A stretch of DNA of 34,491 bases from the NCBI GenBank assembly GCA_964479015.1, contig CAYZJM010000002.1, forward strand, positions 1-34,491, given 5' to 3'. Below are positions 3,201 to 30,512 of this stretch, one piece after another. A program made the position numbers and the translations under genes. The stretch comes from Candidatus Woesearchaeota archaeon. GTDB lineage: Archaea > Nanobdellota > Nanobdellia > Pacearchaeales > GW2011-AR1. Each line of letters opens with the position of its first letter. Positions within the stretch are counted from its first letter, which is position 1. The notes under the pieces are model-generated. The model worked only from the letters and a program-made list of their open reading frames with translations, was not told the DNA's origin and did not search any database.

Positions 3201-5646
3201 TGATAATGATTTAGATTTAGAAATTGTAAATGCAGATCCAAGTGAAGGGGCTGGAGGGGTATATGATGATGAACATATTAATAATACTGGTAGAATTGAT
3301 GTTTTCAATTTAGATGGAACTTATGTTGATGGTTGGCCTGTTTTTACAGAAGGAGTTGTATTCTCTTCTCCTGTTGTTGGTGATTTAAATAATGATGGAG
3401 AAGATAATCTTTTAGTTGGGTTGATGTATGGGTCAGATTCTTGGCCAGATGAAGATTATGGGGGGGTTTATGCTTTTGATAGAAACGGGAATATTTTAGA
3501 GGGTTGGCCTGTAGAAAGAGGATATGAATTCTGGAGTAGTCCTGCATTGGGAGATATTTCAAAGGATGAAGGATTAGAAGTTGTAATTAGTTCTTTGAGT
3601 GGAAAAACTTATCTTTTTAATCCTTCAGGAGCGATTTTAGAAAATTGGCCACAAAGTACAAGTGGGCTTAGCTTTTATTCAAATCATCTTGTGGACATAA
3701 ACAATGATAGAAACCTAAATGTATTAACAAGAGCTGGAAGTAACCAAAATGGAGGGGGTGTTTATGTTTGGGATTTAAATGGGAACATTTTGGAAGGATT
3801 CCCAAAAACAATTGAACAAGGAATTGCTCCTTTAGCTATCTATGAAGACAATGGAAAAATAAATATTGCTACAAGTTCTTGTTGGGATGGTAGCGAGTAC
3901 AAAAATAAATTTAGGGGATCTGTTTATGTATGGAAGTTGGATGCTTCTTATAATTCAGATAAAATGGATTGGCCATTGTTTCAGTATGATAACCAAAACA
4001 CAGGAAGGTATAATAAAAGTCTTGAGAGTCCAGTTTTAAATAACCCTCCAGAGATAACTTCTTCACCAATTACAGATATCAATGAGGGAGAAGCTTACAG
4101 TTATCTAGTGGAGGCAGTAGATGATGATGGAGATGATTTAGAGTATTCATTAAATGAATCTCCTGATTGGGTATCCATAAATTCAACAACCGGTTTGATA
4201 GAAGGAACAGCTCCTATGATTGATGAAGATACCGGCTCTGATGTTGAGCCTAATGTTAAGTTTGATGTAACAATAAGGGTTTATGATAGGATTAATTATA
4301 CAGAACAATCTTATACTCTTATTGTTTTTAAAGAGAGCACATTAATAAGAGGAGATATTGGGAAATGGAAGGTTGAAAAAGTTGATCGTCTTTTAAACAC
4401 AGAAGATTGTACTCTTGGAGGGACATGCAATTCTTTTGTTGTAAATTATTCTAATAGTGTCTTAAAAGTTCAAGAGGTATCTGTGCTGTTAGAAGAGTAT
4501 TCTTCCTTAAATCTTAATGAAGAAGAATTTTTAGAGAGTTTTGAGGATTCTTTTGGCATTGTTTTAAGCGAAACAAGAATCATAGATGGAAAATATTATT
4601 TTTATAAAGATCTAGAAAGAGATAAAGAAGATTCTGTTTCATTGATCTCTTGGTATAGTGACAATAAAATGGTATTAATCGTTGCTCATTGGGATAAAGA
4701 ATTTTATTCAAAAATAACAGAAACATATTTTTCTAGATATCCTTCTAAATTAATTGTTAAACCAGATATTTTAGATACATTTGATGGAGATACAACAGAT
4801 ATTAATGAAATAAAAAAAGAAAGCATTAAAGGTTTAATATTAGAAAAAAAGAATCAAGGAAAGATAGTTTTCAAAGATTCAGTGAATATTAGTGGTTTCA
4901 AAAAGAATACAAAATTATTGACAGATAATGTGGATATTACTTCTAAAAAGATTAGTATAAATACAAAAAGTCTTCCTAGATTAAAGAATTCAAAGGCAGT
5001 TTTAACATTCAAGGAGATTGATTTTAAGCAGCCAATTGTTCTTCATAATGGAGAGAATTGTTCTGATGAAGTATGTTTAGATATGAAGTATCTTAATTCA
5101 ACAAATACTCTTACTCTTAATATCTCTGGATTTTCAACTTTTGAAGTTGTTGAAGGTTATGAAGAAGAGCCAGAAGAAACTACAAATCCTTCAGATGAAG
5201 AAGAGCCAGAAGAAACTACAAATCCTTCAGATGAAGAAGAACCAAAAGAAGAACCAAAAGAAGAGCCTACAGATTCTGGAACAACAGGGCATGGAACATG
5301 CACTCCTGAATGGGAGTGTGACAATTGGGAAATTTGTATAAATGGTTCTCAAGAAAGAGATTGTGAAGATGTAAATGAATGTGGAACTTATACTGGAAAA
5401 CCTGAAACTAAGAGAGATTGTATCGCTGCGGTCGAGATCAATACTGAAAATGAAGACCCTCAAAATCTTGATCAAGATCCTAGTTTTTTAAAGATGTATG
5501 AAGAAGAAAATCGGCCAAAAATATTTTTTGTGTTAATTGCTATTTGGGTCGTGCTTATCTTAATAGGCATGATTTCAATTTTCAAACACATGAAAAGTAA
5601 TACTAAGCGAATTCGCCGTGGACGTTCAAAGAAAGGCTCAAAATAA
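244..5646 (+). CDS. Giant (1800 aa) membrane-anchored surface protein: S8 subtilisin-like protease, FG-GAP/VCBS-like beta-propeller, cadherin-like module, acidic repeat linker, 6-Cys module and a C-terminal TM anchor
   Basis: There is an N-terminal signal/anchor helix (FIFGVLFLIILIVSNQVCVG). The subtilase triad motifs are IAIIDTGVD (Asp codon 1015..1017), HGTHVAATAAG (His 1150..1152) and SGTSMATPHVAG (Ser 1696..1698). About seven D-x-[DN]-x-D-G-x-x-E blades (DLDNNGDKEIVI, GDLDKDDNKEIIVF, ADLNNDGVNEIVI, GNFDNDLDLEIV, GDLNNDGEDNLLVG, GDISKDEGLEVVI, VDINNDRNLNVL) alternate with [EDN]GWP motifs across roughly 2700..3960. A cadherin-like segment follows (PPEITSSP...DDLEYSL..PDWVSINSTTGLIEGTAP). 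A P/E/T linker then leads to CTPEWECDNWEIC..C..C..C, a TM helix (IFFVLIAIWVVLILIGMISIF) and a basic tail. Confidence 0.85.
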   Translation: MSYKREFIFGVLFLIILIVSNQVCVGFENPNILEEDSGELSPESLYGENREDVETLEKPKSLGYIVQFDEEPVMRKKLEVEEVAEKNQRYIDERSSISPMRILYSNFAITPEKVGGELEEYSNKIEDQHEDIKNRIINKLEEEEKNIFTGRIINIITGKSVEKSNEEDHEEIKITNEFKFSFNGIALNISDEEAKEIEDIKGVKKVWPNREVEALLMDSVPLIQEGISAGQLDEDGNDCLVTGKECLTGEGIKIAIIDTGVDYTHPDLGNCTSEEFLEGNCEKVIGGYDFINYDEDPIDDQGHGTHVAATAAGNGEGGLKGVAPNAKVLSYKVLSSEGFGNNAGVIAGIEQAVIGGADILSLSLGGWGDPDDPGSQAVDSAVLSGKVVVVAAGNSGPSEQTIGSPGTARKVITVGATNNINKEDRVAGFSSRGPVIWKDGEGNKKIINKPDILAPGVNICAAQYDSAWEDSQCLDEKHTSISGTSMATPHVAGVIALLKQKHPDWTPEEIKASIKGTAIDLDYSAIKQGAGRINVSALVKLEVPYPLVEPIVSYGEKEINISSDFYSSEGLSYVKLYLNEELLVELDNPDKTSFSYNLDISNYLDGDYFATLEAKSKNEKISVEKDIPIQIENFVISSLQSYDVYRTGSIIDINLDKIVRSDFDCNIFYSLQNEKNWVPANFIEQLDPETGLIGFLNTSSLKDGVYEFKIVFDIPGVGSFEKEVEKVYFDSSLKEGWPQRVEDDYVCENFANVNLNYLTSKDGNILFKAFQNDLDPRYFDGFNPELIYFNKNVLNKSSFYSILSGGQVSQMNNCRYYSVGYIEPVVEDLDNNGDKEIVIYKGGAPPKIVVYDVNGNINWEKKVGDQPIPGGNLHIPLVGDLDKDDNKEIIVFSYEDTTSGISSQISAFKHDGTLFWETEIPPHLMVTMLMADLNNDGVNEIVIKGNSGSERKIIILSPKGEIISLIDLHKTSWGAAIESSLAVGNFDNDLDLEIVNADPSEGAGGVYDDEHINNTGRIDVFNLDGTYVDGWPVFTEGVVFSSPVVGDLNNDGEDNLLVGLMYGSDSWPDEDYGGVYAFDRNGNILEGWPVERGYEFWSSPALGDISKDEGLEVVISSLSGKTYLFNPSGAILENWPQSTSGLSFYSNHLVDINNDRNLNVLTRAGSNQNGGGVYVWDLNGNILEGFPKTIEQGIAPLAIYEDNGKINIATSSCWDGSEYKNKFRGSVYVWKLDASYNSDKMDWPLFQYDNQNTGRYNKSLESPVLNNPPEITSSPITDINEGEAYSYLVEAVDDDGDDLEYSLNESPDWVSINSTTGLIEGTAPMIDEDTGSDVEPNVKFDVTIRVYDRINYTEQSYTLIVFKESTLIRGDIGKWKVEKVDRLLNTEDCTLGGTCNSFVVNYSNSVLKVQEVSVLLEEYSSLNLNEEEFLESFEDSFGIVLSETRIIDGKYYFYKDLERDKEDSVSLISWYSDNKMVLIVAHWDKEFYSKITETYFSRYPSKLIVKPDILDTFDGDTTDINEIKKESIKGLILEKKNQGKIVFKDSVNISGFKKNTKLLTDNVDITSKKISINTKSLPRLKNSKAVLTFKEIDFKQPIVLHNGENCSDEVCLDMKYLNSTNTLTLNISGFSTFEVVEGYEEEPEETTNPSDEEEPEETTNPSDEEEPKEEPKEEPTDSGTTGHGTCTPEWECDNWEICINGSQERDCEDVNECGTYTGKPETKRDCIAAVEINTENEDPQNLDQDPSFLKMYEEENRPKIFFVLIAIWVVLILIGMISIFKHMKSNTKRIRRGRSKKGSK
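5161..5232 (+). repeat. Perfect 2 x 36-nt in-frame tandem repeat (EEEPEETTNPSD x2), followed by degenerate EEP-K units up to about 5270
   Basis: gaagaagagccagaagaaactacaaatccttcagat occurs at 5161..5196 and identically at 5197..5232. The following sequence, gaagaagaaccaaaagaagaaccaaaagaagagcct, is a decayed continuation. Confidence 0.9.
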
Positions 5647-8187: not shown

Positions 8188-8871
<684 letters not shown>

Positions 8872-18151: not shown

Positions 18152-18172
18152 CAGTGCTTGTTTGTTTTGGTT

Positions 18173-20461
18173 ATGCAATTTAATAAAGAAACACCTTTAT
18201 TTGCTTATGAAACTCAAAGAGAGGGGGGAGAAGATATTTTATACATCAATTGTATTGGAGCACAATATGTACCAAGTATTATTGATTCTCCAGAGATTAT
18301 GGAAAAGACCTTTGACATTTTGATGGAAAACCCAAATGTTTCCAGGGTTGTTTTTGTTCAACAAAAAAATTATAGTTATGGTTTTGAAGAAACTTCTTTA
18401 TTGATTGAGATTGCCCAGCTTTATGTGTATCTATTCAAACAAGAAAAAGTTCTTTCTAAAGAGAAACTTTCTCCAAATTATGACGATTTTTTTAACCAGA
18501 GATATAATCAGATTTTTTCATTTTTATTTTTATTAAAAAGAGATCCTCTTGCAGCTTATTTTGATTTGAAAAGAATAATTATTGAATCTAAAATGAATCT
18601 TGATAATCTTGGAGGGGGATACAAACTTGATCAAAATAATTATATTCTTTTTTTAGAGAAAATTTTTTCTTTATTAGAGAATACAAAATTGATAAAATCT
18701 CTTTTACCCTATTCCAATGATTATAGAAAAAGAGATAGAGAGATTTATCATAAAATATTCAAACCAAATATAATCCCTAATTTTACATTTACAAGATTAG
18801 TATCTGAAATTCCTAATGATGCAGAAATTGTAGACCAGTATAAAATCTCAAATGAAGGGGATGATGAATCTGTTGTGACTATTCTAAAAAAGAAAAATGA
18901 GTCTAAATATATCTATCATTTGGTTCCCCCAGAAAATTCTTTAAATGAAGAACAGAGCATGCTTTTGAATTTAGCCAGAGGAGTTTTGATGGAACATCAA
19001 CCAAAAGCAGAAGAATTTACTGAGGCAGAAAGAACAAGGCGGGTTTTTTTTAATATTTCTAAAGATCTTCTCCAAGATTTAGCAAAAAGTAAAGGAATCA
19101 GTATAGATTATGCTGGGTTAAATAAGTTAGCAACGATAATTGTGAGGCATACAATTGGTTTTGGATTAGTGGAGGTTTTATTGCAGGACAAAAGATTACA
19201 GGATATTGTTTTAAATGCTCCAATCCCGTCAACTAATATCTTTTTGAGGCATCAGGATTATGATGAATGTTATACCAATATCCTTCCAAGTCAAGAAGAT
19301 GCAGATTCTTGGGCGGCTAAGTTTAGAATGATTTCTGGAAGGCCTTTAGACGAAGCAAATCCTGTTCTTGATACCCAATTAGAGATTGGGAATATTAGTT
19401 CAAGAATTTCAATTATACAACAACCCCTTTCACCAAAAGGATTATCATATGCAATTAGAAGACATAGAGAAGAACCTTGGACTCTTCCTCTTTTTGTTAA
19501 GAATGGGATGATGAATTCTTTTGCAGCAGGATTACTAAGTTTCTTAGTTGATGGTTCTAGAACAATGTTAGTTGCAGGGACAAGAAGTTCAGGTAAAACC
19601 TCTCTTTTAGGTAGTTTGATGTTAGAGATATCTCCTAAATATAGGATGATTGTTATAGAGGATTCCTTAGAACTCCCATTAAATTCTTTAAGAAATCTCA
19701 ATTATGATACTGTTAGAATGAAGGTTAAATCTGCACTTTCAAGTACAAGTAATGAAGTCTCTGCAGATGATGGTATAAGGACAAGTTTAAGATTAGGGGA
19801 TAGTTCATTGATAGTTGGAGAAGTTAGAAGTACTGAAGCAAAAGCATTATATGAAGCGATGAGGGTTGGAGCACTTGCAAATGTTGTTGCCGGGACAATT
19901 CATGGGGCAAGCCCTTATGGTGTTTTTGATAGGGTTGTTAATGATTTAGAAGTTCCTGCTACAAGTTTTAAAGCAACAGATATCATTATGGTAGCAAATC
20001 CAATAAAGTCTCCAGATGGGTTACATTCTTGGAAAAGACTTTTACAGGTTTCAGAAGTTAGAAAACACTGGAAGAAAGACCCTTCTCAAGAAAATGGATT
20101 TGTAGATTTATTAAGATATAACGTTGAAAAAGATCAGTTAGAACCAAGTGATGATTTAATTAATGGAAATAGTGAGGTTATAAAAGAGATAGCTTCTAGT
20201 GTTAAAGGTTGGGCCGGCAATTGGGATGCTGTTTATGATAATATTCAACTTCGTGCTAAAATTAAAGAAGAATTAGTTAATGCGGCAGAAAGAACAGGAG
20301 ATGAAAGACTTTTAGAAGCAGAATTTACTGTTTTATCTAATGAGGTTTTTCATAAAATTTCAGAAAAAGTAAGAAAAGAAGAAGGATTACCAAAATCAGA
20401 AAAAGTTTTTCCAGAGTGGAAAGAATGGCTAAATAAAGAGATAAAAAAAAGAAAATCTTAA
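18173..20461 (+). CDS. Type IV pilus/archaellum-class secretion ATPase (FlaI/PilB/VirB11 superfamily), 762 aa
   Basis: Walker A is AGTRSSGKTS. The Asp box/Walker B regions are MIVIEDSLEL and LIVGEVRSTEA. The His box is AGTIHGASP. The N- and C-terminal extensions are long. The track starts at TTG 18158. ATG 18173 fits the TATA spacing better. Confidence 0.85.
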   Translation: MQFNKETPLFAYETQREGGEDILYINCIGAQYVPSIIDSPEIMEKTFDILMENPNVSRVVFVQQKNYSYGFEETSLLIEIAQLYVYLFKQEKVLSKEKLSPNYDDFFNQRYNQIFSFLFLLKRDPLAAYFDLKRIIIESKMNLDNLGGGYKLDQNNYILFLEKIFSLLENTKLIKSLLPYSNDYRKRDREIYHKIFKPNIIPNFTFTRLVSEIPNDAEIVDQYKISNEGDDESVVTILKKKNESKYIYHLVPPENSLNEEQSMLLNLARGVLMEHQPKAEEFTEAERTRRVFFNISKDLLQDLAKSKGISIDYAGLNKLATIIVRHTIGFGLVEVLLQDKRLQDIVLNAPIPSTNIFLRHQDYDECYTNILPSQEDADSWAAKFRMISGRPLDEANPVLDTQLEIGNISSRISIIQQPLSPKGLSYAIRRHREEPWTLPLFVKNGMMNSFAAGLLSFLVDGSRTMLVAGTRSSGKTSLLGSLMLEISPKYRMIVIEDSLELPLNSLRNLNYDTVRMKVKSALSSTSNEVSADDGIRTSLRLGDSSLIVGEVRSTEAKALYEAMRVGALANVVAGTIHGASPYGVFDRVVNDLEVPATSFKATDIIMVANPIKSPDGLHSWKRLLQVSEVRKHWKKDPSQENGFVDLLRYNVEKDQLEPSDDLINGNSEVIKEIASSVKGWAGNWDAVYDNIQLRAKIKEELVNAAERTGDERLLEAEFTVLSNEVFHKISEKVRKEEGLPKSEKVFPEWKEWLNKEIKKRKS

Positions 20462-20523
20462 GGTTTTTTATTATTCTACTTTTAATCTGATAATTTTATA
20501 AAGTTTGAAATTCTTTAGGATAT

Positions 20524-20784
20524 ATGGAAAAATTAAGTAAAAAAAGGGAATTTAAGAAATTTAAAAGAACTATGTTTGCATATATCTCGATAGGGTTGCT
20601 TGCATCTTCACTTGTTTTTACCTCTTCAGATATTACAGGGCATTCTATTGCATCAACTTCCCAATTGTCTAATACTATTGGGGTTATTCTTTTTTTAGGG
20701 GGATTAGTTTTTGCTTATGTCCATTTGAGATATGAAAATTTTAAAGTCCGTAGAAACAGCAGAAAAATTAAGAAGAGTTCTTAA
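20524..20784 (+). CDS. Small two-TM membrane protein, unknown function (pilus locus)
   Basis: The 86-aa protein has a basic N-terminus, two hydrophobic helices and a basic tail. A ttttataaa TATA box (20494..20502) lies 26 nt upstream of the ATG. Confidence 0.5.
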   Translation: MEKLSKKREFKKFKRTMFAYISIGLLASSLVFTSSDITGHSIASTSQLSNTIGVILFLGGLVFAYVHLRYENFKVRRNSRKIKKSS

Positions 20785-20856
20785 TTTTAAACAGATATGT
20801 AACCTCAGAAATTAGTTCTCCAAACATTTATTAATTTAGTTTTTCTTCTTTTTAAA

Positions 20857-20863
20857 GAGGTGA
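20857..20863 (+). promoter_or_regulatory. Shine-Dalgarno-like site (gaggtga) for the platform-protein gene
   Basis: aaagaggtgaggatATG. GAGGTGA is complementary to the conserved 16S 3' end and ends 4 nt before ATG 20868. Confidence 0.6.
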
Positions 20864-20867
20864 GGAT

Positions 20868-23054
20868 ATGTCAAAAAAGAGACCAAACAGAAAAGCAGAT
20901 GTTAAGGACATTTTGGATAAATATGGAAAAAAGATAGAGAATCAGATGAATACTTCTCGTCCAGTGAGAAAAAAAGATATAAAAAAAAGTTATAGCAAAG
21001 AGTATACTCTTTTTAAAGAAGAGATGGCCCCTCAATGGTCAAGGTATGAAAAATGGTGCCATAGTTTAGGAAAAATTATAAAGGTTAATGCTTCTGAAAA
21101 AGATAAGAAGGAAATACAAAGAAATCTTGAAATTGCCCATCTTGATGTAGAACCATGGCAATCTTTATCCTTAAGCATCATCGTTTTTTTAATAATTTTT
21201 CTTTTAGGAATCTTTAGTTCTATAGGGGTTTTTCTTATTACTGATTCTTTTCCAGTATTGTTTTTTCTTTTAACAGTCTCTATGTCTTTATTCCTTTTTT
21301 ATTATATGAAAAATTATCCTAAAAGACTTGCAAATAAGTGGAGACTTAAGGCTTCTAGTCAGATGGTTCCAGCAATACTGTATATTGTTGTCCATATGAG
21401 GCACACTCCAAATCTTGAAAAAGCAATTTCATTCGCATCTCAACATTTAGAGTATCCTTTATCTTTAGATCTAAAAAAAGTATTTTATAATGTTGAAGTT
21501 GGGAAGTTTTCTACAATAAAAGAGAGTTTGGAAAATTATTTACAAGGTTGGAGAGATTATTCTCAAGAATTTATAGAATCTTTTAATCTTATTGAAAGTA
21601 GTTTATTCGAGCCAGATGAATCAAGGAGAATTGCTACTCTTGAAAGATCTTTGCAAGTTATTCTTGATGGCGTTTATGATAAAATGCTTAAATTTGTCCA
21701 TGATATTAAGAGTCCTATCCAAAGTACATATATGCTCGGAACAACTCTCCCTGTTTTGGGTTTGGCTTTATTGCCTTTAGCTTCAATAATGGTAGGAGAT
21801 TTTCTTAAAACGGGTCATGTATTCTTTTTATATAATCTTCTTATCCCATTTATTGCCTTTTTTTTAATGAGCAAGTATATGATGATGCGTCCTGGAGGGC
21901 ATGGGGAGACAAATCTTTTAGAAAGAAATCCTCTTTATTCAGAATACAAGAAAAATGATCATTATTTCAAATCATTTTTAATCTGCTTGCCTTTGTTTAT
22001 TTTAGGATTTTTGCCATTTATATTTCAGTACACTCCTTTACCCGAAATTTTGAATTTATCAAGAGATTTTACTTTTTCCCAGATAGGGATGAATTTCTTT
22101 GGGGATGTGAAATTTTTTGGTTTTGTCCAGGAAGGAGGAGAAACTTATGGCCCATTTGGAATTGGATCTTTGATATTAGGAATGTTTATCCCTTTAGGGA
22201 TGGCTTTGTTTTTTTCTTTAGCATATAAGGGAAAGACAAAAGATCTTATAAAAGAGAGAGAAAATACAAATAAGTTAGAGAGCGAGTTTAAAAATTCATT
22301 ATTTCAGTTAGGAAATAGGATAGGAAATGGAGACCCTCCAGAAGTTGTTTTTGGAAAAGTTGCAAGGTCTTCAAAAGGGCTGAATTCTGCGGATTTTTTT
22401 AAAAGAGTAGATTATAATATAAGACAAATGGGGATGAATGTAGAAAGAGCTATTTTTGATAAAAACAGAGGAGCGATAAATCATTACCCTTCAGATTTAA
22501 TTTCTACAAGTATGAGAATTCTTGTTGAAGCTTCTAAAAAAGGATTAAAGATTGCTGCAGTTAGTCTTATGAGTATTTCACAATATGTTAAAAATATTCA
22601 GAAAATTACTGCAAGACTAAGAGATATGCTCGCAGAGATTATTTCTGATATGAAAAGTAATATGACTTTTCTTGCACCATTACTTTCTGGAGTTGTTGTA
22701 GGTTTAGCAATGATGATAAGTTCTATTTTAGGGAAAATCGCTGGTTTTGAAGAGTTAGGAGGGAGTGCGGAGATAGGATTAGGAGGTGTTGAGGAGATAA
22801 TGGGGGTTTTTAGTCAAAATGTGATGATCCCTCCTTATTTTTTACAAGTTGCAATAGGGATTTATCTTATTCAAATAATTTTTATTCTTACAGATACTTT
22901 AGTGACTATAGATTCAGGAGAGGATAGATTAGAAAAGACAAACCAAACAGGAAAGAATTTAGTTAAGGGAATCTCTCTTTATACTGTTGTTGCTTTAATT
23001 TCTACAATCGCGTTGTTTATTCTCTCTTCGGTTGTTTTAGGAAATTTAGGGTGA
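20868..23054 (+). CDS. Polytopic pilus platform protein (FlaJ/TadC/T2SS-F-like), 728 aa
   Basis: TM bundles alternate with two soluble helical domains of about 130 aa (about residues 150-290 and 460-600). This is the duplicated T2SS-F architecture. The gene lies just downstream of the ATPase, after one small membrane-protein gene. No single diagnostic motif can be read by eye. Confidence 0.65.
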   Translation: MSKKRPNRKADVKDILDKYGKKIENQMNTSRPVRKKDIKKSYSKEYTLFKEEMAPQWSRYEKWCHSLGKIIKVNASEKDKKEIQRNLEIAHLDVEPWQSLSLSIIVFLIIFLLGIFSSIGVFLITDSFPVLFFLLTVSMSLFLFYYMKNYPKRLANKWRLKASSQMVPAILYIVVHMRHTPNLEKAISFASQHLEYPLSLDLKKVFYNVEVGKFSTIKESLENYLQGWRDYSQEFIESFNLIESSLFEPDESRRIATLERSLQVILDGVYDKMLKFVHDIKSPIQSTYMLGTTLPVLGLALLPLASIMVGDFLKTGHVFFLYNLLIPFIAFFLMSKYMMMRPGGHGETNLLERNPLYSEYKKNDHYFKSFLICLPLFILGFLPFIFQYTPLPEILNLSRDFTFSQIGMNFFGDVKFFGFVQEGGETYGPFGIGSLILGMFIPLGMALFFSLAYKGKTKDLIKERENTNKLESEFKNSLFQLGNRIGNGDPPEVVFGKVARSSKGLNSADFFKRVDYNIRQMGMNVERAIFDKNRGAINHYPSDLISTSMRILVEASKKGLKIAAVSLMSISQYVKNIQKITARLRDMLAEIISDMKSNMTFLAPLLSGVVVGLAMMISSILGKIAGFEELGGSAEIGLGGVEEIMGVFSQNVMIPPYFLQVAIGIYLIQIIFILTDTLVTIDSGEDRLEKTNQTGKNLVKGISLYTVVALISTIALFILSSVVLGNLG

Positions 23055-23076
23055 AAGATTTATTAATCTTTATTTT
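23054..23076 (+). promoter_or_regulatory. BRE/TATA promoter element, copy 1 of a 23-nt near-identical pair
   Basis: aaagatttattaatctttatttt. The core tttattaa (23059..23066) is centred 25-26 nt upstream of ATG 23088. The second copy at 25153..25175 differs at one base and has the same 11-nt spacing to its ATG. Confidence 0.6.
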
Positions 23077-23087
23077 CTTTACATTTT

Positions 23088-23237
23088 ATGGAAAAAAGAG
23101 GGATTGTTTCAGATTATCTTCCATGGGTACTGATTGCAATTGCAGTTCTTACAATTGTTTTAGTCTCTATTTTTTTGATGAAGGATACCGGTTTTGAACT
23201 AATTGATAGAATTAAAAATTTGTTTGTTGGGAGATAA
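23088..23237 (+). CDS. 49-aa pilin-like protein with a class III signal peptide (not in the ORF track)
   Basis: My own translation is MEKRGIVSDYLPWVLIAIAVLTIVLVSIFLMKDTGFELIDRIKNLFVGR. It has a KRG motif followed by a hydrophobic helix. The stop TAA overlaps the next ATG (TAATG at 23235..23239). The promoter and first codons are paralogous to the gene at 25187 (MRKRGN). Confidence 0.6.
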   Translation: MEKRGIVSDYLPWVLIAIAVLTIVLVSIFLMKDTGFELIDRIKNLFVGR

Positions 23238-23611
23238 TGGCAGAACTTACAATCGGACAGTTGATTAAAGTAATCCTTGGGGTTTTAGTTGTAGTTGTAG
23301 TCATGATAGGGCTTTTTGTATTTTTTAAAGGGCAAGTTTTTGGTATTTTTGAGGGTTATGGTGGTGAAGATATGGGGCTCATTCCTTCAGAAGAATCTGA
23401 AGATGAAACAATGTATGAAGAGGATAAAGAGGGAATAACCGAAGAGGAAGATGTAGAAGAAGGGAGTAACGATTGTTTAGAAGGAGGAGTACGGGTTTAT
23501 AAAAAAAAGGAGCCTCAAGTTTCAGAGTGTTGTTATGGTGATTATTGTTCAAAAAAAGTTTTGTTTTTCTGCACTGAAAGGAGATGTTGTTCTGTTGAAC
23601 AAGGATGTTAA
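23237..23611 (+). CDS. Small membrane-anchored Cys-rich protein (pilus locus)
   Basis: The 124-aa protein has an N-terminal hydrophobic helix (LIKVILGVLVVVVVMIGLFVFF) without a clear [KR][KR]G site. An acidic linker follows. The C-terminal 45 aa carry 8 Cys (C..CC..C..C..CC..C). Confidence 0.6.
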   Translation: MAELTIGQLIKVILGVLVVVVVMIGLFVFFKGQVFGIFEGYGGEDMGLIPSEESEDETMYEEDKEGITEEEDVEEGSNDCLEGGVRVYKKKEPQVSECCYGDYCSKKVLFFCTERRCCSVEQGC

Positions 23612-23613
23612 AA

Positions 23614-24267
23614 ATGGATAAAAAAGGATTTTTGTTAGGTGAAGAGACAGTTAAAATAATTATATCTGTGATTGTGATTGCTTTTTTGATTTATTTTCTA
23701 ACTTCTCTCTATTTCGCACATGAAAAAAATAAGGATTTAGAACTTGCTGAAAGTTCATTAGACCAATTAGTTTCTTCTATAAATGAAGGGGCATCTTCTG
23801 TTGAAATTTATAATCCTACTAACAAAGTTCTTTTTACATGGCCGATGTATACCGAGATTGATGATGAAATAGAGGAGGTTATGCCTCAATCTTGTGAGAT
23901 AAAAGGTTGGGATAATTGTATTTGTATTTGTGGTGTAAATCATCTTAAACAAAATATAGAGAGTGAAGAAGAAAGGAGATGGTGGGAGAAAGCTCTTGAT
24001 GTTGTGACGTGGGTTCCTAGGAAAATAGTAGACTATGGAGTAAGACCTCTAGCAGAATATTTTGGGATTTGGGATAATGAAATTATAGAAATGGCAGAGA
24101 GGTGTAGTTCTGATTGGGTTTGCAAGGAATCTCAAGGAGAAGTAATAGCAGGGGTTAAAGATGATGGCGATTTTGAAGGGAGGCTTTTGATTATAGAGAA
24201 CCCCCCGTTAGAATTAAATCTAAAATATGAAGATGAGGGGGTTTTAATAATAAAAGATAATGGATGA
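23614..24267 (+). CDS. Pilin-like protein with a class III signal peptide and a Cys-containing C-domain
   Basis: MDKKG|FLLGEETVKIIISVIVIAFLIYFL. The track starts 3 codons earlier at 23605 (MLKMDKKG), and either start is possible. The mature part has the Cys clusters QSCEIKGWDNCICICG and ERCSSDWVC. Confidence 0.65.
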   Translation: MDKKGFLLGEETVKIIISVIVIAFLIYFLTSLYFAHEKNKDLELAESSLDQLVSSINEGASSVEIYNPTNKVLFTWPMYTEIDDEIEEVMPQSCEIKGWDNCICICGVNHLKQNIESEEERRWWEKALDVVTWVPRKIVDYGVRPLAEYFGIWDNEIIEMAERCSSDWVCKESQGEVIAGVKDDGDFEGRLLIIENPPLELNLKYEDEGVLIIKDNG

Positions 24268-24355
24268 TTTGATAAAATATTTAATCTGGATTGTATTCTT
24301 TGGAGTGGTGTTAACAGGAGTAATTTTAATGTTAAAGAGGTTTGGGATCTTATGA
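24260..24355 (+). CDS. Possible 31-aa single-TM micro-protein
   Basis: My own translation is MDDLIKYLIWIVFFGVVLTGVILMLKRFGIL. Its ATG overlaps the preceding stop (ATGGATGA). It fills the only otherwise empty gap in this operon. There is no other support. Confidence 0.25.
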   Translation: MDDLIKYLIWIVFFGVVLTGVILMLKRFGIL

Positions 24356-24364
24356 GGTTTTAAT

Positions 24365-25147
24365 ATGGAATTGAGAGATAAAAAAAGAGAAAAGAAAGGA
24401 GAAATAACAACAAAACAATTAGTCACAATAATAATCCTAATTGTGAGTTTTACAGTAATTTTATATTTCATATTCAGATTGAATCTAACTGGAACAACAG
24501 ATAAAGAAATTTGCCATAACTCTGTTGTTTTGCAAGCAAAATCTTTTGGTATTGCTGGTTCCTTAGATTGTAAAACTAGTTATGTTTGTATCTCTGGAGG
24601 AGGGGGATGTGAAGGGATTTTAGAAGACAGTGTTGTAGAAGTTAATCCTGAAGATAAAAATGAAGTTTTTAAAGCAATTGCTGATGAGATGGCTGATTGT
24701 TGGTGGATGTTTGGAGAAGGGAAATTAGATTATACCTCTAAGAATATTGTATCTGATAAAGTAGGATGTGCTATTTGTTCCGTTATAAAATTTGATGAAG
24801 AGATTATCGATAGATATAGTGAAGAAGGAATTAGGTACCAAGAACTTTTAGAATTTTTAGAAAGAGAAAAAGTTAGTGATGATGAAACATATCTCCATTA
24901 TCTTACTTCTTACTATAGTCTGGAAGATCTTTTTGGAGATTTTGAAGAGATTAATGGATATAGTCAGAGGCTAATTTCATTAGAAGAAAAACATATTATT
25001 CAAACTGTTCAGGCAAAAGAATCCTTGATTAAAGAAATTTTGAAATGGAAACTTAATGATTACTATATGATTCCTCCATTTTTATATGAGATTGGGGAAA
25101 GTCCTTTAGGAGTAGATGGCTGTGATGAATATGTCACAAATGCATAA
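24365..25147 (+). CDS. Pilin-like protein with a class III signal peptide and a Cys-rich C-domain
   Basis: MELRDKKREKKG|EITTKQLVTIIILIVSFTVILYFIF. There are 9 Cys in the mature part (EICHN, LDCKTSYVCISGGGGCEG, ADCWW, GCAICS, GCDEY). gaggt lies 6 nt upstream of the ATG. Confidence 0.65.
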   Translation: MELRDKKREKKGEITTKQLVTIIILIVSFTVILYFIFRLNLTGTTDKEICHNSVVLQAKSFGIAGSLDCKTSYVCISGGGGCEGILEDSVVEVNPEDKNEVFKAIADEMADCWWMFGEGKLDYTSKNIVSDKVGCAICSVIKFDEEIIDRYSEEGIRYQELLEFLEREKVSDDETYLHYLTSYYSLEDLFGDFEEINGYSQRLISLEEKHIIQTVQAKESLIKEILKWKLNDYYMIPPFLYEIGESPLGVDGCDEYVTNA

Positions 25148-25152
25148 TTTCT

Positions 25153-25175
25153 AAAGTTTTATTAATCTTTATTTT
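25153..25175 (+). promoter_or_regulatory. BRE/TATA promoter element, copy 2 of the 23-nt pair
   Basis: aaagttttattaatctttatttt. The core tttattaa (25158..25165) is centred 25-26 nt upstream of ATG 25187. Confidence 0.6.
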
Positions 25176-25186
25176 TTATTCTATTT

Positions 25187-25657
25187 ATGAGAAAAAGAGG
25201 GAATATTCTTATAGAGAATGTTATTTTTATAATTTTAAATGTTGTTTTTATATCTATTCTGATCTTTTTTGTTCTTTCTAAAGCAAATGATGCTTCAGTT
25301 ATGGAAGAAGAGTATGCAAAACAAATTGCACTAATGATTGATTCTGCAAGACCTGGGATGATAATTAATTTAACAATGGAAAATGCAATTGAAAAGGCCA
25401 AGGAGAATTTTGGAGAAGAAGATTTTGAGAAGATGATAAATATAGATGGAAACAAGGTTACTGTAGGTTTAAGAAAAGACGGGGGTTATAGTTACTCTTT
25501 TTTTAATGATGTGGAGGTAAGTTATTACCCTCTTGATGATAAGAATTACATTTTTATTATAGATGAAAAAGAGAATCGTGAAGAGATTCAAGAAGAAACT
25601 ATAGAAGAAATTCAAGAAGAAAATGTAGAGGAGAATTTAGGAGATTCAAATGAATAA
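25187..25657 (+). CDS. Pilin-like protein with a class III signal peptide and an acidic repeat tail
   Basis: MRKRG|NILIENVIFIILNVVFISILIFFVL. The C-terminus is EEIQEETIEEIQEENVEENL. Confidence 0.65.
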   Translation: MRKRGNILIENVIFIILNVVFISILIFFVLSKANDASVMEEEYAKQIALMIDSARPGMIINLTMENAIEKAKENFGEEDFEKMINIDGNKVTVGLRKDGGYSYSFFNDVEVSYYPLDDKNYIFIIDEKENREEIQEETIEEIQEENVEENLGDSNE

Positions 25658-26189
25658 AAAAGCTACAGAAAAGGTTGTTTCAGTTTATTGGTTTTTTATT
25701 TTATTTATTGTAGCAGGAGCAGTGGTATTTATGGTGTCTGCTTTTTATGGTTCACCTTATGATGTTAGAGAGATGGAGGAGAAGATTCTTTCAGATAAGG
25801 TTGCAGATTGTGTTTCTTCAGGAGGTTACATCAATTCAGAAATTTTAGAAGACGAGAATTTTAAAAATAATTTTTTAGATAGATGTGATTTAACATTTGA
25901 AGTTGAAGACCAGTACGGTTGGAGCGAAAGTTCAGAATATTATCTCAATATAGGAATTTATGAATTTAATTATGAATCTGATTTTGATAGAATCCAAGAA
26001 GATGAAGAAGTCCAATTAGGAGAGAAGTTATTTGAAGTGGAAGAAGGGAGTATTAATCTAAAATCATTTTATAATTCAGATTCTAATGATAACTCAAAAG
26101 AGAGAAAGATGTATGTTCTTGATGAGGAGGGGAATCAGTATGTAATTAAAGTTTTATCAATAGTTAGAAAAACAGAAAAAAATGAATAA
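25650..26189 (+). CDS. Pilin-like protein with a probable class III signal peptide
   Basis: MNKKA|TEKVVSVYWFFILFIVAGAVVFMV. There is an 8-nt overlap with the upstream gene (ATGAATAA), and aggag lies 7 nt upstream. Confidence 0.55.
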   Translation: MNKKATEKVVSVYWFFILFIVAGAVVFMVSAFYGSPYDVREMEEKILSDKVADCVSSGGYINSEILEDENFKNNFLDRCDLTFEVEDQYGWSESSEYYLNIGIYEFNYESDFDRIQEDEEVQLGEKLFEVEEGSINLKSFYNSDSNDNSKERKMYVLDEEGNQYVIKVLSIVRKTEKNE

Positions 26190-26715
26190 AAAAATAGGAA
26201 ATCTTGCAAAGATAAATAAGAAAGGTCAAGCAAGCGATGCAGTAGTATGGATTGTCGCAACAGCAATAATTGCCACAATTCTTTTGATTTCAATTTCAAT
26301 TTCGATTGATTTAGGCGGGAATAAAACATTCAACCAAGATACAGAATTTGATTTGTTCGCTAAAAAATCTTTGACCAGTTATTTATTAACACAGGGACAA
26401 TCAGGAGATATAATTTTTGAAGAGTTGAAAGAAGAAAACAATTTTAACGATTTTAATAAAAATCTTGCAATCGGGATTTTTAAGGGATTTTATGAAAGAG
26501 ATTATTTGTATGGAAAAGTTTGGTTAGGGTTCAATTCTGAGGGAGGATGGAATTGGAATATTCCAGGTAATAATCCTTTTGGGGAGAAACCCCTTATAGA
26601 AACAGAAGGAGGGGTAGGAATGAAGGTTGGTTCGTTACCACTTTTAGAGATGATTCATTTAGAAGAGAGTCAAGGGAAAAATAACTGGATTGAATTAATC
26701 TTATCACGAAATTAA
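26182..26715 (+). CDS. Pilin-like protein with a class III signal peptide
   Basis: MNKKIGNLAKINKKG|QASDAVVWIVATAIIATILLISISI. It has the same 8-nt ATGAATAA overlap junction as the previous gene. Confidence 0.6.
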   Translation: MNKKIGNLAKINKKGQASDAVVWIVATAIIATILLISISISIDLGGNKTFNQDTEFDLFAKKSLTSYLLTQGQSGDIIFEELKEENNFNDFNKNLAIGIFKGFYERDYLYGKVWLGFNSEGGWNWNIPGNNPFGEKPLIETEGGVGMKVGSLPLLEMIHLEESQGKNNWIELILSRN

Positions 26716-26729
26716 GGGAGAAATAAAAG

Positions 26730-27095
26730 ATGGAAAAATTTTTATCAAATAAAAAAGGAGGAGCGCCTGTTTTTATTTTAGTTATAGGAGTAGTTGCTAT
26801 TTGTATCCTAGCTTTGTTTAGTTTTATTTCTTTTGAAATTAAGGGGCCAAGTAAAGAAATCGGATTAGAGGCATTTGAAGGGATTTCTTCAGATGTCGAA
26901 TCCTTTGAGTTTTACCTTAATGTAGGTTTTAGTGAAGAAGAATCTCTTAAAAAAATGGTTTATTTTCAAAAAGATGCTATATCTAAGATGAGGTCGAGAG
27001 GGGGAGATTTAGAAGCAGAGATTGATGGAGAGAATTTAGTAATAAAAAGAAAAAGCAATAATCTTGAAGTTACTTACTACTATTCTCTAGATTGA
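26730..27095 (+). CDS. Pilin-like protein with a class III signal peptide
   Basis: MEKFLSNKKG|GAPVFILVIGVVAICILALFSFI. agggag lies upstream of the ATG. Confidence 0.6.
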   Translation: MEKFLSNKKGGAPVFILVIGVVAICILALFSFISFEIKGPSKEIGLEAFEGISSDVESFEFYLNVGFSEEESLKKMVYFQKDAISKMRSRGGDLEAEIDGENLVIKRKSNNLEVTYYYSLD

Positions 27096-27160
27096 ATAAT
27101 TTTTATTAAAATAATAGAAATATATTTTAGATTTTTTAGATTCTTTTCTTTATTAGGTCA

Positions 27161-27328
27161 TTTAAAAAGAAACATTTATAAATAAAAAGATCATAATCCA
27201 GATATGATTGGTAAAAGAGGTCAAGGTTTAAGCACTAATGCAATTATTCTTATAGTTCTTGGAGTTATTATATTAGCAGTTTTAGTTGTAGGATTTACAA
27301 TTGGATGGGGCCAGATAGCTCCTTTCAT
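27161..27328 (+). repeat. Duplicated segment, copy 1 (promoter plus the first 125 nt of the pilin gene)
   Basis: An ungapped by-eye alignment with 27686..27853 gives 34 of 43 matches upstream of the ATG. All 125 of the first coding nt (27204..27328) match. Confidence 0.9.
27166..27182 (+). promoter_or_regulatory. BRE/TATA promoter of pilin paralogue 1
   Basis: aagaaacatttataaa. The core tttataaa (27175..27182) is centred 25-26 nt upstream of ATG 27204. The same element recurs at 27691..27707. Confidence 0.6.
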
Positions 27329-27569
27329 CTCGCAGACAAATGTAGATACAATCCAAACTAGTTGTGAAACAGCCTGTGTTCTTGAAAGTAATTATGGATT
27401 TTGTGCCGAAGAGAGAGAATTAAGATGGGATGGAAAGACTCTTGAGGGGACTTGTAACGACTTTTCAATGAATAACACTCTTATAGCGAATGGGATAACA
27501 ATTTCTAGTTGTCCTGGAATAACTTGCGAGGGAGTTGTAGAAAAAAGTAGCGAAGAAGAAAGTGAATAA
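27204..27569 (+). CDS. Candidate major pilin, paralogue 1 (121 aa, class III signal peptide, 6-Cys C-domain)
   Basis: MIGKRG|QGLSTNAIILIVLGVIILAVLVVGF. It is monocistronic with its own TATA box and a T-rich downstream region. The mature domain has 6 Cys (C-x3-C-x8-C ... C ... C-x5-C). Confidence 0.8.
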   Translation: MIGKRGQGLSTNAIILIVLGVIILAVLVVGFTIGWGQIAPFISQTNVDTIQTSCETACVLESNYGFCAEERELRWDGKTLEGTCNDFSMNNTLIANGITISSCPGITCEGVVEKSSEEESE

Positions 27570-27632
27570 GAAATTTAGAATTAATTTTAAAAATTTTTAA
27601 TTTATTTTGAGTAGATGGTATTTATTTAATCA

Positions 27633-27659
27633 ATTATTATTATTATTATTATTATTATT
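27633..27659. repeat. Perfect (ATT)9 microsatellite in the inter-pilin spacer
   Basis: I counted nine uninterrupted ATT units, followed by AT. The tract ends 41 nt upstream of the TATA box of pilin paralogue 2. Confidence 0.95.
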
Positions 27660-27685
27660 ATGTGTTTTATTTTTATAATTAATGG

Positions 27686-27853
27686 TTTGAAAAGAAACAT
27701 TTATAACTATAAAAATCATGATATAGATATGATTGGTAAAAGAGGTCAAGGTTTAAGCACTAATGCAATTATTCTTATAGTTCTTGGAGTTATTATATTA
27801 GCAGTTTTAGTTGTAGGATTTACAATTGGATGGGGCCAGATAGCTCCTTTCAT
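27686..27853 (+). repeat. Duplicated segment, copy 2 (promoter plus the first 125 nt of the pilin gene)
   Basis: See copy 1. The coding part 27729..27853 is identical to 27204..27328. Confidence 0.9.
27691..27707 (+). promoter_or_regulatory. BRE/TATA promoter of pilin paralogue 2
   Basis: aagaaacatttataac. The core (27700..27707) is centred 25-26 nt upstream of ATG 27729. Confidence 0.6.
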
Positions 27854-28154
27854 TTCTACAAGTAATGTAAATGCAATTAAAATTGAGTGCCAAAATGCTT
27901 GTGAGCTTGAAAGTTTTTATGATTTTTGTTTAAAAGATAGAGAAGTTAAAGCAGAGGAGTATAATAGCCCTAAAGATGCTAGTTGTTTTATTCTTTCAGA
28001 GGATTATAGTAATCTCGGGATAGAATCTTGTCCTGCTTTAGATTCAGAATGTGAGGATTTTTTCTCAGACCTCAAAGAAGAAGAAAATGAACTTCCAAAA
28101 GCAGAGGAGTCTCCAATAGTAGTAGAGGTGCCTGATCCTAAAACTGAAGATTAG
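27729..28154 (+). CDS. Candidate major pilin, paralogue 2 (141 aa, class III signal peptide, 6-Cys C-domain, acidic/Pro tail)
   Basis: The first 43 aa are identical to paralogue 1. The six Cys positions are conserved in an otherwise diverged C-domain. The track's start at 27660 would add 23 residues that run through the promoter element, so ATG 27729 is preferred. Confidence 0.8.
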   Translation: MIGKRGQGLSTNAIILIVLGVIILAVLVVGFTIGWGQIAPFISTSNVNAIKIECQNACELESFYDFCLKDREVKAEEYNSPKDASCFILSEDYSNLGIESCPALDSECEDFFSDLKEEENELPKAEESPIVVEVPDPKTED

Positions 28155-28357
28155 AATTTATAAAATTGATATTTTTAAAATGGATTATAGTGTTGGTTCT
28201 GATAAAAGGAATAAAGGGAAGGATAAAAAGAGAGAGAAAAAGAAACACCCTTATAAAAAAGGCGGGAAAAAAAGAAGTGAGAAAAAGACAAATCAAAAGA
28301 GATAGGTTTTGGGGTTATAAAAAATAGTTTTATAAAGAATTTAATTCAATTTTATTT

Positions 28358-29209
28358 ATGGAGGGGGTAATATTCTTATTTGTTCTTGCTTTAATCTGGA
28401 TAGTCTTTGCAGTTGTGGGGGATTGGAAAAATTCAGAGATCCCTAACTGGTTAAATTTTTCTTTAATCATTTTTGCATTGGGATTTAGGTTTTTTTATCC
28501 TTTTTTTTCAGAAGCAGGATTCTCATTTTTTTATCAAGGTTTATTAGGATTAGGATTCTTTTTTATTATGGGTAATCTTTTTTATTATTGTAAAATTTTT
28601 GCAGGAGGAGATGCAAAATTAATGATTGCTCTTGGACCCATACTCCCAATGTGTAATAATTTCTTTTCTAATTTAGATATCTTTTTCTTTTTTTTACTTG
28701 CTTTCCTATTTTTTGGGGCGATTTATGGGATGATATTTAGCGGGTATATGGTTTTTAAGAATTTTGGCATATTTCGTAGGGGTTTTAATAATTATTTAAA
28801 AAAGAATAAGACAATTTTAAAAATATCGACTACTACGGGATTCATTTTTATAGCTCTAGGTTTGATAGATTTTGTTTTCATTTTTGCAGGTTTTTTTATA
28901 TTAATAACTTCATTGTTGGTTGCATCAGCAAAATCAATCGATGAGCGCATTATGGTTAGGGAAGTTCAACCAAACAAATTAAGGGAAGGAGACTGGTTAG
29001 AAAAAAGTGTAAAGTGTAAAGACAAATTGATTAAATCAAATTGGGAAGGGCTTAATAAAGAAGAAATTATGTTATTAAAAAAGAGAAATAAAATTGTTAA
29101 GATTAAAGAGGGATTGCCTTTTGCACCGGTTTTTCTTTTTAGTTTCTTATTTATTGGTTATGCTTATTTTTTTAATGAAGAATTATTCTCTTTAATTGGT
29201 TTAATCTAA
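28358..29209 (+). CDS. Prepilin/preflagellin peptidase (A24 family, FlaK/PibD/EppA-like)
   Basis: The first catalytic Asp is in VGDWKNSEIPN (D22, 28421..28423) and the second in FAGGDAKLM (D85, 28610..28612). The protein is polytopic with a soluble insert before the last helix. A ttttataaa TATA box (28328..28336) lies 26 nt upstream. Confidence 0.8.
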   Translation: MEGVIFLFVLALIWIVFAVVGDWKNSEIPNWLNFSLIIFALGFRFFYPFFSEAGFSFFYQGLLGLGFFFIMGNLFYYCKIFAGGDAKLMIALGPILPMCNNFFSNLDIFFFFLLAFLFFGAIYGMIFSGYMVFKNFGIFRRGFNNYLKKNKTILKISTTTGFIFIALGLIDFVFIFAGFFILITSLLVASAKSIDERIMVREVQPNKLREGDWLEKSVKCKDKLIKSNWEGLNKEEIMLLKKRNKIVKIKEGLPFAPVFLFSFLFIGYAYFFNEELFSLIGLI

Positions 29210-29987: not shown

Positions 29988-30512
29988 TCATCGATTATCT
30001 TTAATATAATTAGAGATATAATTTTCATATTTTCTTACAGAATCTAATTTTGGGATTGTTTCATCAGGGATTCTTATTCCAAACTTTTGTTCTACAGTAT
30101 AAGCTACTTCATGTATATCTAAAACATCCATTCCCATCTCTTCGAAACTCTGGTTGGGCATTACCTTTCTAGGGTCTTGTTCAAAGATATGATTGACTAA
30201 GATTCCTTCTAATTTGCTTGAAATTTTTGTTCTATCAAAGTTATTTGATGTTTCTTGTGTTTTAGAGATATAATCTTCATATTTTTTTAGAGAATCTAAT
30301 TTAGGAATTGTTTCATCAGGAATTTTTATTCCAAATTTTCCTTCTATCATATATGCTATCTCATGTGTATCCAAACTATCCATCCCCATCTCTTCAAAAC
30401 TCTTATTTGGATTTATATTTATTGGATTGTATCCAAAGATATGTTCCACTATAATTCCTTCTACTCTCTTTGAAATTTCTGTTTTATTAGATTCATCTGA
30501 ATTTTCTTTCAT
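29988..30512 (-). CDS. Tandem acyl-carrier-protein (ACP-like) didomain protein
   Basis: There are two 71-aa repeats. Repeat 1 is ISKRVEGIIVEHIFGYNPININPNKSFEEMGMDSLDTHEIAYMIEGKFGIKIPDETIPKLDSLKKYEDYIS. It aligns without gaps, by eye, to bacterial ACP (IEERVKKIIGEQLG...LGADSLDTVELVMALEEEF..EIPDEEAEKI...AIDYI). Repeat 2 has GMDVLD at the same place. Confidence 0.8.
   Translation of the reverse strand: MKENSDESNKTEISKRVEGIIVEHIFGYNPININPNKSFEEMGMDSLDTHEIAYMIEGKFGIKIPDETIPKLDSLKKYEDYISKTQETSNNFDRTKISSKLEGILVNHIFEQDPRKVMPNQSFEEMGMDVLDIHEVAYTVEQKFGIRIPDETIPKLDSVRKYENYISNYIKDNR
30012..30476 (-). repeat. Internal tandem duplication encoding the two ACP-like domains (30264..30476 and 30012..30224)
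   Basis: Residues 13-83 and 97-167 of the protein are collinear repeats separated by a 13-aa linker. Confidence 0.85.

Follow-up and report, generated by a model that had tools for sequence, protein, structure and literature searches.

We analyzed a 34,491-bp stretch of DNA, contig CAYZJM010000002.1 of assembly GCA_964479015.1 (Candidatus Woesearchaeota archaeon). We refer to the whole stretch as the window, and all coordinates are positions in it. The window has a G+C content of 30.6% and is a chromosomal piece of a DPANN-type archaeon (Pacearchaeota/Woesearchaeota-like). It carries a type IV filament locus (18158-29209) in which two genes for putative major pilins, here called gene 1 and gene 2, lie in tandem. 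The 5' ends of these genes are identical, while the variable parts that follow (the heads) have diverged. The features of the pair and of its surroundings are as follows.

27166..27181, + strand: putative promoter of gene 1, a purine-rich block resembling a B recognition element (BRE) plus a TATA box (AAAGAAAC ATTTATAA), the TATA box 23-29 nt 5' of the ATG
27200..27328, + strand: first copy of the identity tract, 4 nt upstream of the start plus codons 1-42 minus one base; putative conversion tract
27204..27569, + strand: gene 1, an open reading frame (ORF) of 121 amino acids, putative major pilin, orthologue by position and sequence of the single pilin of the closest relatives
27330..27566, + strand: head of gene 1, with C54, C58, C67, C84, C103 and C108
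27633..27659, + strand: (ATT)9 microsatellite, situated 3' of gene 1 and 5' of the gene 2 promoter
27691..27706, + strand: putative promoter of gene 2, with the 16-mer BRE/TATA block and the spacing of gene 1
27725..27853, + strand: second copy of the identity tract, an exact match to the first
27729..28154, + strand: gene 2, 141 amino acids, putative extra major-pilin paralogue with a C-terminal helix and an acidic/Pro tail
27855..28151, + strand: head and tail of gene 2, as used in the head-only comparison

Extension of the exact match showed that 27200-27328 and 27725-27853 are the same base for base, with 0 mismatches in 129 nt. The tract consists of 125 coding nucleotides and the 4 nt 5' of each ATG, spanning positions -4 to +125 of each gene, and is flanked by mismatches at 7/43 positions upstream and 31/91 downstream. 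It forms part of the longest direct repeat of the window (D1; 259 nt, 85%, spacing 525). The initial annotation of this DNA had reported an identical 5' block encoding 43 identical residues, and both observations were borne out, the tract being 4 nt longer than noted. Residues 1-43 are indeed shared, and the first nucleotide difference within the genes is the third base of codon 42 (ATC/ATT). The claim that identity collapses immediately after codon 42 proved too strong: the heads have diverged, but codons 43-72 keep 67% nucleotide and 50% amino acid identity, because they encode the C-x3-C-x8-C core that is conserved throughout the family. From codon 73 on, the alignment falls to ~49% nucleotide identity. 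Six Cys residues are kept in both genes, as had been noted, with the last pair spaced C-x4-C in gene 1 and C-x6-C in gene 2 and not x5/6 as first described. The acidic/Pro tail of gene 2 is present, and the heads are close in G+C content (0.375 and 0.34).

We next compared synonymous divergence (dS, Nei-Gojobori) in the two partitions, a check that the initial annotation had itself proposed. Between gene 1 and gene 2, dS is 0.033 over codons 1-42, 0.74 over codons 43-72 and 0.88 from codon 43 onward. Where the two genes encode the same residue, the codons differ in 1/42 cases in the 5' part and in 9/28 in the 3' part (Fisher p = 0.0008). At the background rate, the probability of finding 41/41 identical codons is ~1e-7 to 1e-8, and an identical run of at least 125 bases appeared in 0/100,000 shuffles of the 94 differences. 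The same segment diverges normally between orthologues. Over codons 1-42, gene 1 differs by 22-32 nt from the closest orthologues compared, P0002 (from locus L083), P0003 (L081) and P0004 (L082), with a dS of 0.79-1.31 and with 13-15 of the 33-36 identical-residue codons being different. In pairs of close loci, moreover, the 5' part and the head diverge about equally fast (for example, 86.6% vs 82.7%, and 85.0% vs 81.1%). Several synonymous codons are used within the tract for Gly (GGT/GGA/GGC), Leu (TTA/CTT), Ile (ATT/ATA/ATC) and Val, so codon optimization offers no explanation. Given the low dS of the tract and the values seen between orthologues, protein constraint, nucleotide-level selection and codon bias all fail to account for it. 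On these sequence comparisons purifying selection can be excluded as the cause of the tract, as the initial annotation had argued, and a recent ectopic gene conversion confined to the 5' end would fit: a sharp-edged tract of near identity has a far lower dS than its flanks, and the promoters just upstream already differ.

The same 16-mer BRE/TATA block (AAAGAAACATTTATAA) lies 5' of both genes, at equal distance from the ATG. Over the whole promoter regions (27161-27203 and 27686-27728), 36/43 positions match and 7 differ; the promoters are therefore conserved with the same TATA spacing, as previously described, and only the earlier count of 34/43 has to be corrected. A promoter-like motif, AAAAAC[A/T]TTTTTAAA[C/T]AAAATAA, is found in most of the 59 listed related loci, at a fixed position ~23-36 nt 5' of the ATG. 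The loci that have it belong to metagenome-assembled genomes (MAGs) of Pacearchaeota, Woesearchaeota and Nanoarchaeota. Since the motif is family-wide, the likeness between the promoters of the two paralogues mostly reflects a family-wide constraint. Its fixed spacing suggests a very short leader and an independently transcribed, probably strongly expressed pilin gene. The public record of gene 2 (P0007, 164 amino acids) starts at an in-frame ATG at 27660 and runs across the promoter region of gene 2; a start at 27729 is supported by the family alignment and by the match to gene 1. Upstream of gene 2 there is a unique spacer of 116 nt, which includes the (ATT)9 microsatellite, plus the diverged promoter. 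This spacer and the distinct promoter would indirectly support the idea that the tandem is real. The microsatellite is situated ~40 nt 5' of the gene 2 TATA box, and its length could shift by slippage. Runs of this type are not unique to the pilin spacer: an (AAT)20 run at 8212-8273 is coding (poly-Asn in a homologue of methylpurine-DNA glycosylase).

The closest relative that we found, locus L164 (sibling L083), is collinear with the window over 14 genes, with amino acid identities of 82% for the assembly ATPase, 77% for a candidate platform protein and 60% for the prepilin peptidase. It has a single major pilin, whose identity is 62% with gene 1 and 50% with gene 2, and the pilin of L081 and L082 is also single-copy. 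Gene 1 is 62% identical to P0002/P0174, which hold the matching syntenic position. Because L164 is collinear and its one pilin is nearer to gene 1, position and sequence identify gene 1 as the ancestral-position orthologue and gene 2 as an extra, long-diverged copy. The site of gene 2 is occupied in L083 (551-879) and L164 (9373-9701) by a non-coding, AT-rich spacer of 330 nt, in which neither blastn nor tblastn revealed a remnant of gene 2; it could be what is left of a second pilin gene since lost. In L081 and L082, the gene that follows, encoding a microprotein described below, starts within 12-37 nt after the pilin gene.

Tract and head give discordant relationships. Compared on their heads only, genes 1 and 2 share 32% identity; among 150 matches to the gene 1 head, gene 2 comes 97th, and for the gene 2 head gene 1 comes 75th of 150. 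The best match of the gene 1 head is P0002 (44%) and that of the gene 2 head is P0003 (45%), which comes from a different sample. Over residues 6-43 (GQG motif to S43), by contrast, the two genes are nearest to each other (38/38), the next best match being 34/38. As the promoters differ and lie outside the tract, gene 2 would have been a complete gene before its -4 to +125 segment was overwritten, which favors conversion between existing genes over a fresh partial duplication.

Genes 1 and 2 are members of a large unnamed family. With these two as queries, word-limited searches returned 307 and 230 proteins, all of them hypothetical and with no Pfam entry, whose source MAGs carry the labels Pacearchaeota, Woesearchaeota and Nanoarchaeota; the two proteins themselves had no match in Pfam or NCBIfam scans. 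Over the 148 members compared, the family N-terminus, (K/R)-G-Q-G-L-S-T-N-A-I-I-L-I..., hardly varies, and five or six Cys are likewise kept almost throughout; the GQGLSTNAIILI motif shows no variation in this set, and G6, Q7 and G8 show little or none. The predicted leader, MIGKRG|QGLS, with R at -2, G at -1 and Q at +1, has the features of a class III leader (PMC4371748). AlphaFold2 models built on the family alignment (mean pLDDT, the predicted local distance difference test score, of 85 for gene 1 and 86 for gene 2) place a hydrophobic helix after the processing site in both paralogues (residues 9-38, pLDDT above 90, with 93-97 at residues 11-30). In the models, the heads are compact and Cys-rich, with short helices and one beta-hairpin, and have the same topology in both genes; gene 2 has an additional helix (102-119) ahead of its tail. 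The predicted family head, with its six conserved Cys and pLDDT above 90, is unlike the beta-rich heads of the solved archaeal pilins. A profile search of the PDB with the family yielded no more than a weak similarity, in the N-terminal part, to an archaeal pilin (8fjs, E = 0.77). Two family members, L041 (DATKUW010000085.1) and P0117, stand on contigs of MAGs with bacterial labels, Bacillota and Candidatus Daviesbacteria, respectively. Mis-binning of archaeal contigs is the probable cause, since the family promoter and the gene context are archaeal.

The order of genes in the filament locus, also found in relatives L082, L164 and L165, is ATPase, platform candidate, seven small genes, gene 1, gene 2, microprotein and A24 peptidase. 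The components other than the pilin pair are the following.

18158..20461, + strand: assembly ATPase (Pfam T2SSE, E = 1.1e-14; NCBIfam FlaI/TadA-type matches below the family cut-offs)
20868..23054, + strand: polytopic membrane protein of 728 amino acids, 77% identical to its L164 neighbor; candidate platform protein by position only
23237..27095, + strand: seven consecutive small genes, each encoding a short basic leader and then a hydrophobic helix; putative minor pilins or accessory subunits
28180-28305, + strand: basic microprotein of 41 amino acids (MDYSVGSDKRNKGKDKKREKKKHPYKKGGKKRSEKKTNQKR)
28358..29209, + strand: prepilin (class III signal) peptidase (Pfam Peptidase_A24, E = 4.9e-10, above the curated cut-off)

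The pilin assignment made by the initial annotation holds as a working one: a class III-type leader and a long N-terminal helix are found in products whose genes are linked to an A24 peptidase and a T2SSE ATPase, together with a platform candidate that lacks a Pfam match. The term "major pilin" is supported by this signal-peptide architecture and genomic context, not by homology to a characterized pilin, and is used here in that putative sense. The seven small pilin-like genes gave no Pfam or NCBIfam match, and all of them are kept in order in L164, with 50-64% amino acid identity. The first of them (23237-23611, + strand) encodes a very Cys-rich C-terminus (…CLEGG…ECCYGDYCSKKVLFFCTERRCCSVEQGC). 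That several proteins of the locus are Cys-rich suggests extensive extracellular disulfide bonding of the filament system. A basic microprotein of 35-45 amino acids, with an almost invariant KKHPYKKGG core, occurs between the pilin and peptidase genes in 96/164 loci, which include L001-L083, L164 and others, directly 3' of the pilin gene. It has no Pfam or NCBIfam match. The window and L164 versions are 76% identical, which exceeds the conservation of the pilins or the peptidase; it may be a component of the locus or an unrelated housekeeping microprotein.

Elsewhere, the window encodes housekeeping functions, among them RadA, an RPA-like OB-fold protein, elongation factor EF-1 beta, a Tyr/Trp-tRNA synthetase and a Hef-like helicase with an ERCC4 nuclease. 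At 29988-30512 (- strand) there is a gene for a 174-amino-acid protein with two phosphopantetheine-binding (acyl-carrier) domains, which are encoded by a 252-nt tandem repeat with 77-79% identity. A double acyl-carrier protein is unusual for a genome type whose lipid or polyketide metabolism is presumably minimal. At 244-5646 (+ strand) lies the gene for a secreted-type subtilase of 1800 amino acids (Peptidase_S8 with I9 propeptide, FG-GAP-like and He_PIG Ig-like domains); at 5159-5250, near the part encoding the C-terminus, a 36-nt unit is perfectly repeated in tandem (2.6 copies). Rfam, tRNA and bacterial promoter/terminator scans around the pilin genes returned nothing relevant.

The initial annotation had further proposed that the pilin heads are exchangeable or variable and serve antigenic variation, and had suggested a search for silent cassettes in related genomes. 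We examined 163 related loci (80 species representatives, 80 loci from Joint Genome Institute (JGI) metagenomes and three fetched individually), 113 of which carry at least 700 nt on either side of the pilin gene. No pair with identical 5' ends was found among them. An adjacent second family member occurs only in L027 and in L080/L158, and those pairs have diverged over their full length, N-terminus included. In the 34-kb window itself, a repeat search and a family hidden Markov model run on six-frame ORFs detected no further cassette copies or family members; the two members present are complete genes with promoters, and not silent promoterless partial copies. Nor was strain-level head replacement seen: where two loci share at least 90% identity in their downstream flanks, the heads track the flanks. 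One candidate, P0111/P0173, combines an N-terminal part of 38/38 with heads of 43% identity. These proved to be ordinary orthologues from different samples with ordinary synonymous divergence in the 5' part. An exact 51-nt piece of the cassette had no match in viral contigs. The exchangeable-head, antigenic-variation proposal is therefore unsupported, with no extra cassettes in the window, no match in the related loci and heads that are kept between close strains.

Taken together, we consider it likely, with fairly high confidence, that this is a type IV filament locus with tandem major-subunit genes in which a recent ectopic conversion affected 129 nt at the 5' end. Gene 2 would have arisen from an old duplication or as an acquired homologue. 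RadA-type homologous recombination between the copies, which are 525 bp apart, would then have led to a short ectopic gene conversion from -4 to +125 (RadA is encoded in the window). The converted segment encodes the leader, the putative peptidase site (KRG|QG) and the predicted hydrophobic assembly helix. The end of the tract was probably set by the drop in nucleotide similarity at that point, and probably also by the fact that convertants with homogenized heads would lose what distinguishes the two subunits. Both precursors would be cut by the one A24 peptidase and be compatible with a single filament core and its machinery, with the two subunits displaying different Cys-rich, presumably disulfide-rich heads, to which gene 2 adds its helix and acidic/Pro tail. 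The outcome would be mixed or alternative filaments that differ in their surface properties. Two filament surfaces, or differential expression of the two genes, is a reasonable inference.

Several points weigh against this reading. The 728-amino-acid platform candidate has no Pfam match, a Foldseek comparison of both models with the PDB gave nothing with E below 1, and likeness to characterized pilins in sequence or fold was absent in Pfam, NCBIfam, PDB profile and Foldseek searches, so that the filament function is deduced from context. The pair is a single instance, and selective maintenance of identical 5' ends is not demonstrable from it. The exact count of zero differences may overstate the identity, as a de Bruijn assembler can collapse small differences, although such collapse could not remove the 20 or more differences expected without conversion. 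Finally, the tract is also compatible with recombination joining a foreign head to the resident 5' end.

This last possibility leads to a mosaic by import, in which a pilin gene or head acquired laterally from another lineage recombined, by way of the conserved 5' stretch, with the gene already resident, the identical block being the product of a crossover and not of conversion between long-resident paralogues. It would agree with heads that are no nearer to each other than to some 75-97 other family members, with the single-copy state of the closest relatives and with a gene 2 head that is closest to a protein from a different sample. We regard it as unlikely, however, since gene 2 has its own complete, differing family-type promoter, which indicates that the whole gene, and not a head, was present first, and a conversion-like step would still be required for -4 to +125. 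Similar head G+C contents, the absence of mobile-element genes nearby and the lack of strain-level head swaps in the related loci also speak against it. Still less probable is an assembly artefact, in which the assembler collapsed a repeat, popped bubbles or joined the pilin alleles of two strains into a chimera. The contig is metagenome-assembled, each of the two proteins is a singleton in the public collection, and a repeat of 129 nt is close to the common maximum k-mer sizes of assemblers. Alleles, though, would have a common upstream gene and promoter, whereas gene 2 has its own 116-nt spacer and a promoter with 7 differences, and collapse can erase a few differences but not the 22-32 seen between orthologues.

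Selection on the nucleotides themselves, acting through a 5' mRNA element, a translation-initiation or membrane-targeting signal, or extreme codon bias, would dispense with recombination altogether. It might be expected in genes that seem near-leaderless and strongly promoted, with the TATA box fixed at -29 to -23, and in the most conserved part of the family, its N-terminus. This explanation is nevertheless close to refuted, and we give it almost no credence: the orthologues differ at 13-15 synonymous codons over the same 42, the tract mixes synonymous codons, and the adjacent pairs in L027 and L080 differ across the whole N-terminus. We think equally little of a programmed diversification, whether a pilE/pilS-like cassette conversion or a diversity-generating retroelement acting on the head. 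A filament subunit with a constant 5' end and a variable 3' end recalls such systems, and DPANN archaea are known to carry diversity-generating retroelements. A pilS-like mechanism was rejected, however, as both copies are complete and promoted, no promoterless partial copies exist in the 34 kb, and it is the constant part that has been homogenized, the reverse of the pilE/pilS direction. A diversity-generating retroelement was also ruled out, the head differences involving all base types and not adenines, and no reverse transcriptase domain being present among the window ORFs scanned. A broader speculation is that promoter, 5' cassette and conserved downstream genes form a standing recombination handle for the repeated duplication, separation and replacement of heads; we find this very doubtful. 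If true, such a handle would work within a genome and between strains, the window would be its first caught instance, and an episymbiotic archaeon would gain a simple two-cassette means of altering the surface of its attachment filament.

Recent conversion between two resident genes is thus the reading that we retain. What the pair probably represents is a clean but ordinary gene conversion between paralogous archaeal pilins with a common N-terminal module, and no new variation system. It offers a quantifiable case of concerted evolution limited to one segment of an archaeal filament subunit: what fits the peptidase and the filament core is kept identical while the exposed part may vary. The by-products of the analysis are perhaps more useful than the pair itself: a large DPANN pilin family with no Pfam or NCBIfam model and with a head unlike solved folds, a conserved promoter at fixed spacing, and a very conserved basic microprotein between pilin and peptidase genes. 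These could aid the annotation of type IV filament loci in DPANN genomes.

Among known systems, the pilE/pilS system of Neisseria is the obvious comparison for conversion between type IV pilin copies with a constant 5' and a variable 3' part. There, silent promoterless pilS copies that lack the 5' part donate variable 3' sequence to the expressed pilE at high frequency (PMC4023411, PMC13017665). Unlike in Neisseria, both copies in the window are complete and promoted, the constant 5' part is the one that appears converted, and nothing points to exchange that is recurrent or programmed. The leader pattern recalls instead the Epd pilins of Methanococcus maripaludis, whose EppA-type leaders have K/R at -2, G/A at -1 and Gln at +1 (KGQ/RAQ; PMC4371748, Table 1), and in both cases many small pilin-like genes share a locus with a dedicated peptidase. 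However, there is no sequence match to Epd pilins or to the EppA model (NCBIfam, E = 0.094, far short of its cut-off), and the main Epd pilin has no globular head, whereas the window proteins have one. Loci for "System 1" type IV filaments have been reported in DPANN (PMC4371748; 10.64898/2026.04.22.720090). Archaellin multigene families, such as arlA/arlB of Halobacterium (PMC7002104), are also made of tandem archaeal filament-subunit paralogues with conserved N-termini, but belong to another family and to another, rotary machine; no FlaH/FlaF/FlaG-type genes are evident in the window locus. In the papers searched we found no report of a conversion tract in archaellins.

The closest analogue of the pair is the PilA1-PilA6 set of Haloferax volcanii, whose H-domain is almost fully conserved while the C-terminal parts are different (Esquivel et al. 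2013, as summarized in PMC4371748). According to that summary, each PilA can form a pilus through the PilB3/C3 machinery and PibD, and adhesion and apparently expression differ among them. As in the window, major-pilin paralogues of one archaeal genome share the N-terminal part and differ in their heads, and the summary of PilA in PMC4371748 does not treat nucleotide-level identity or conversion. As described there, the PilA genes are scattered members of an unrelated family (arCOG02416), with a D/R-A-V-S leader, whereas the window pair is a tandem of two copies inside the assembly locus, with an R-G-Q-G leader. The window pair is set further apart by its Cys-rich and, as predicted, mostly helical head. 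The pair parallels PilA1-6 and extends this arrangement to DPANN archaea that have not been cultured, in which pili are believed to establish host contact. By analogy with the episymbiotic Saccharibacteria (PMC9894109), the two heads may bind different partners, such as host cells.

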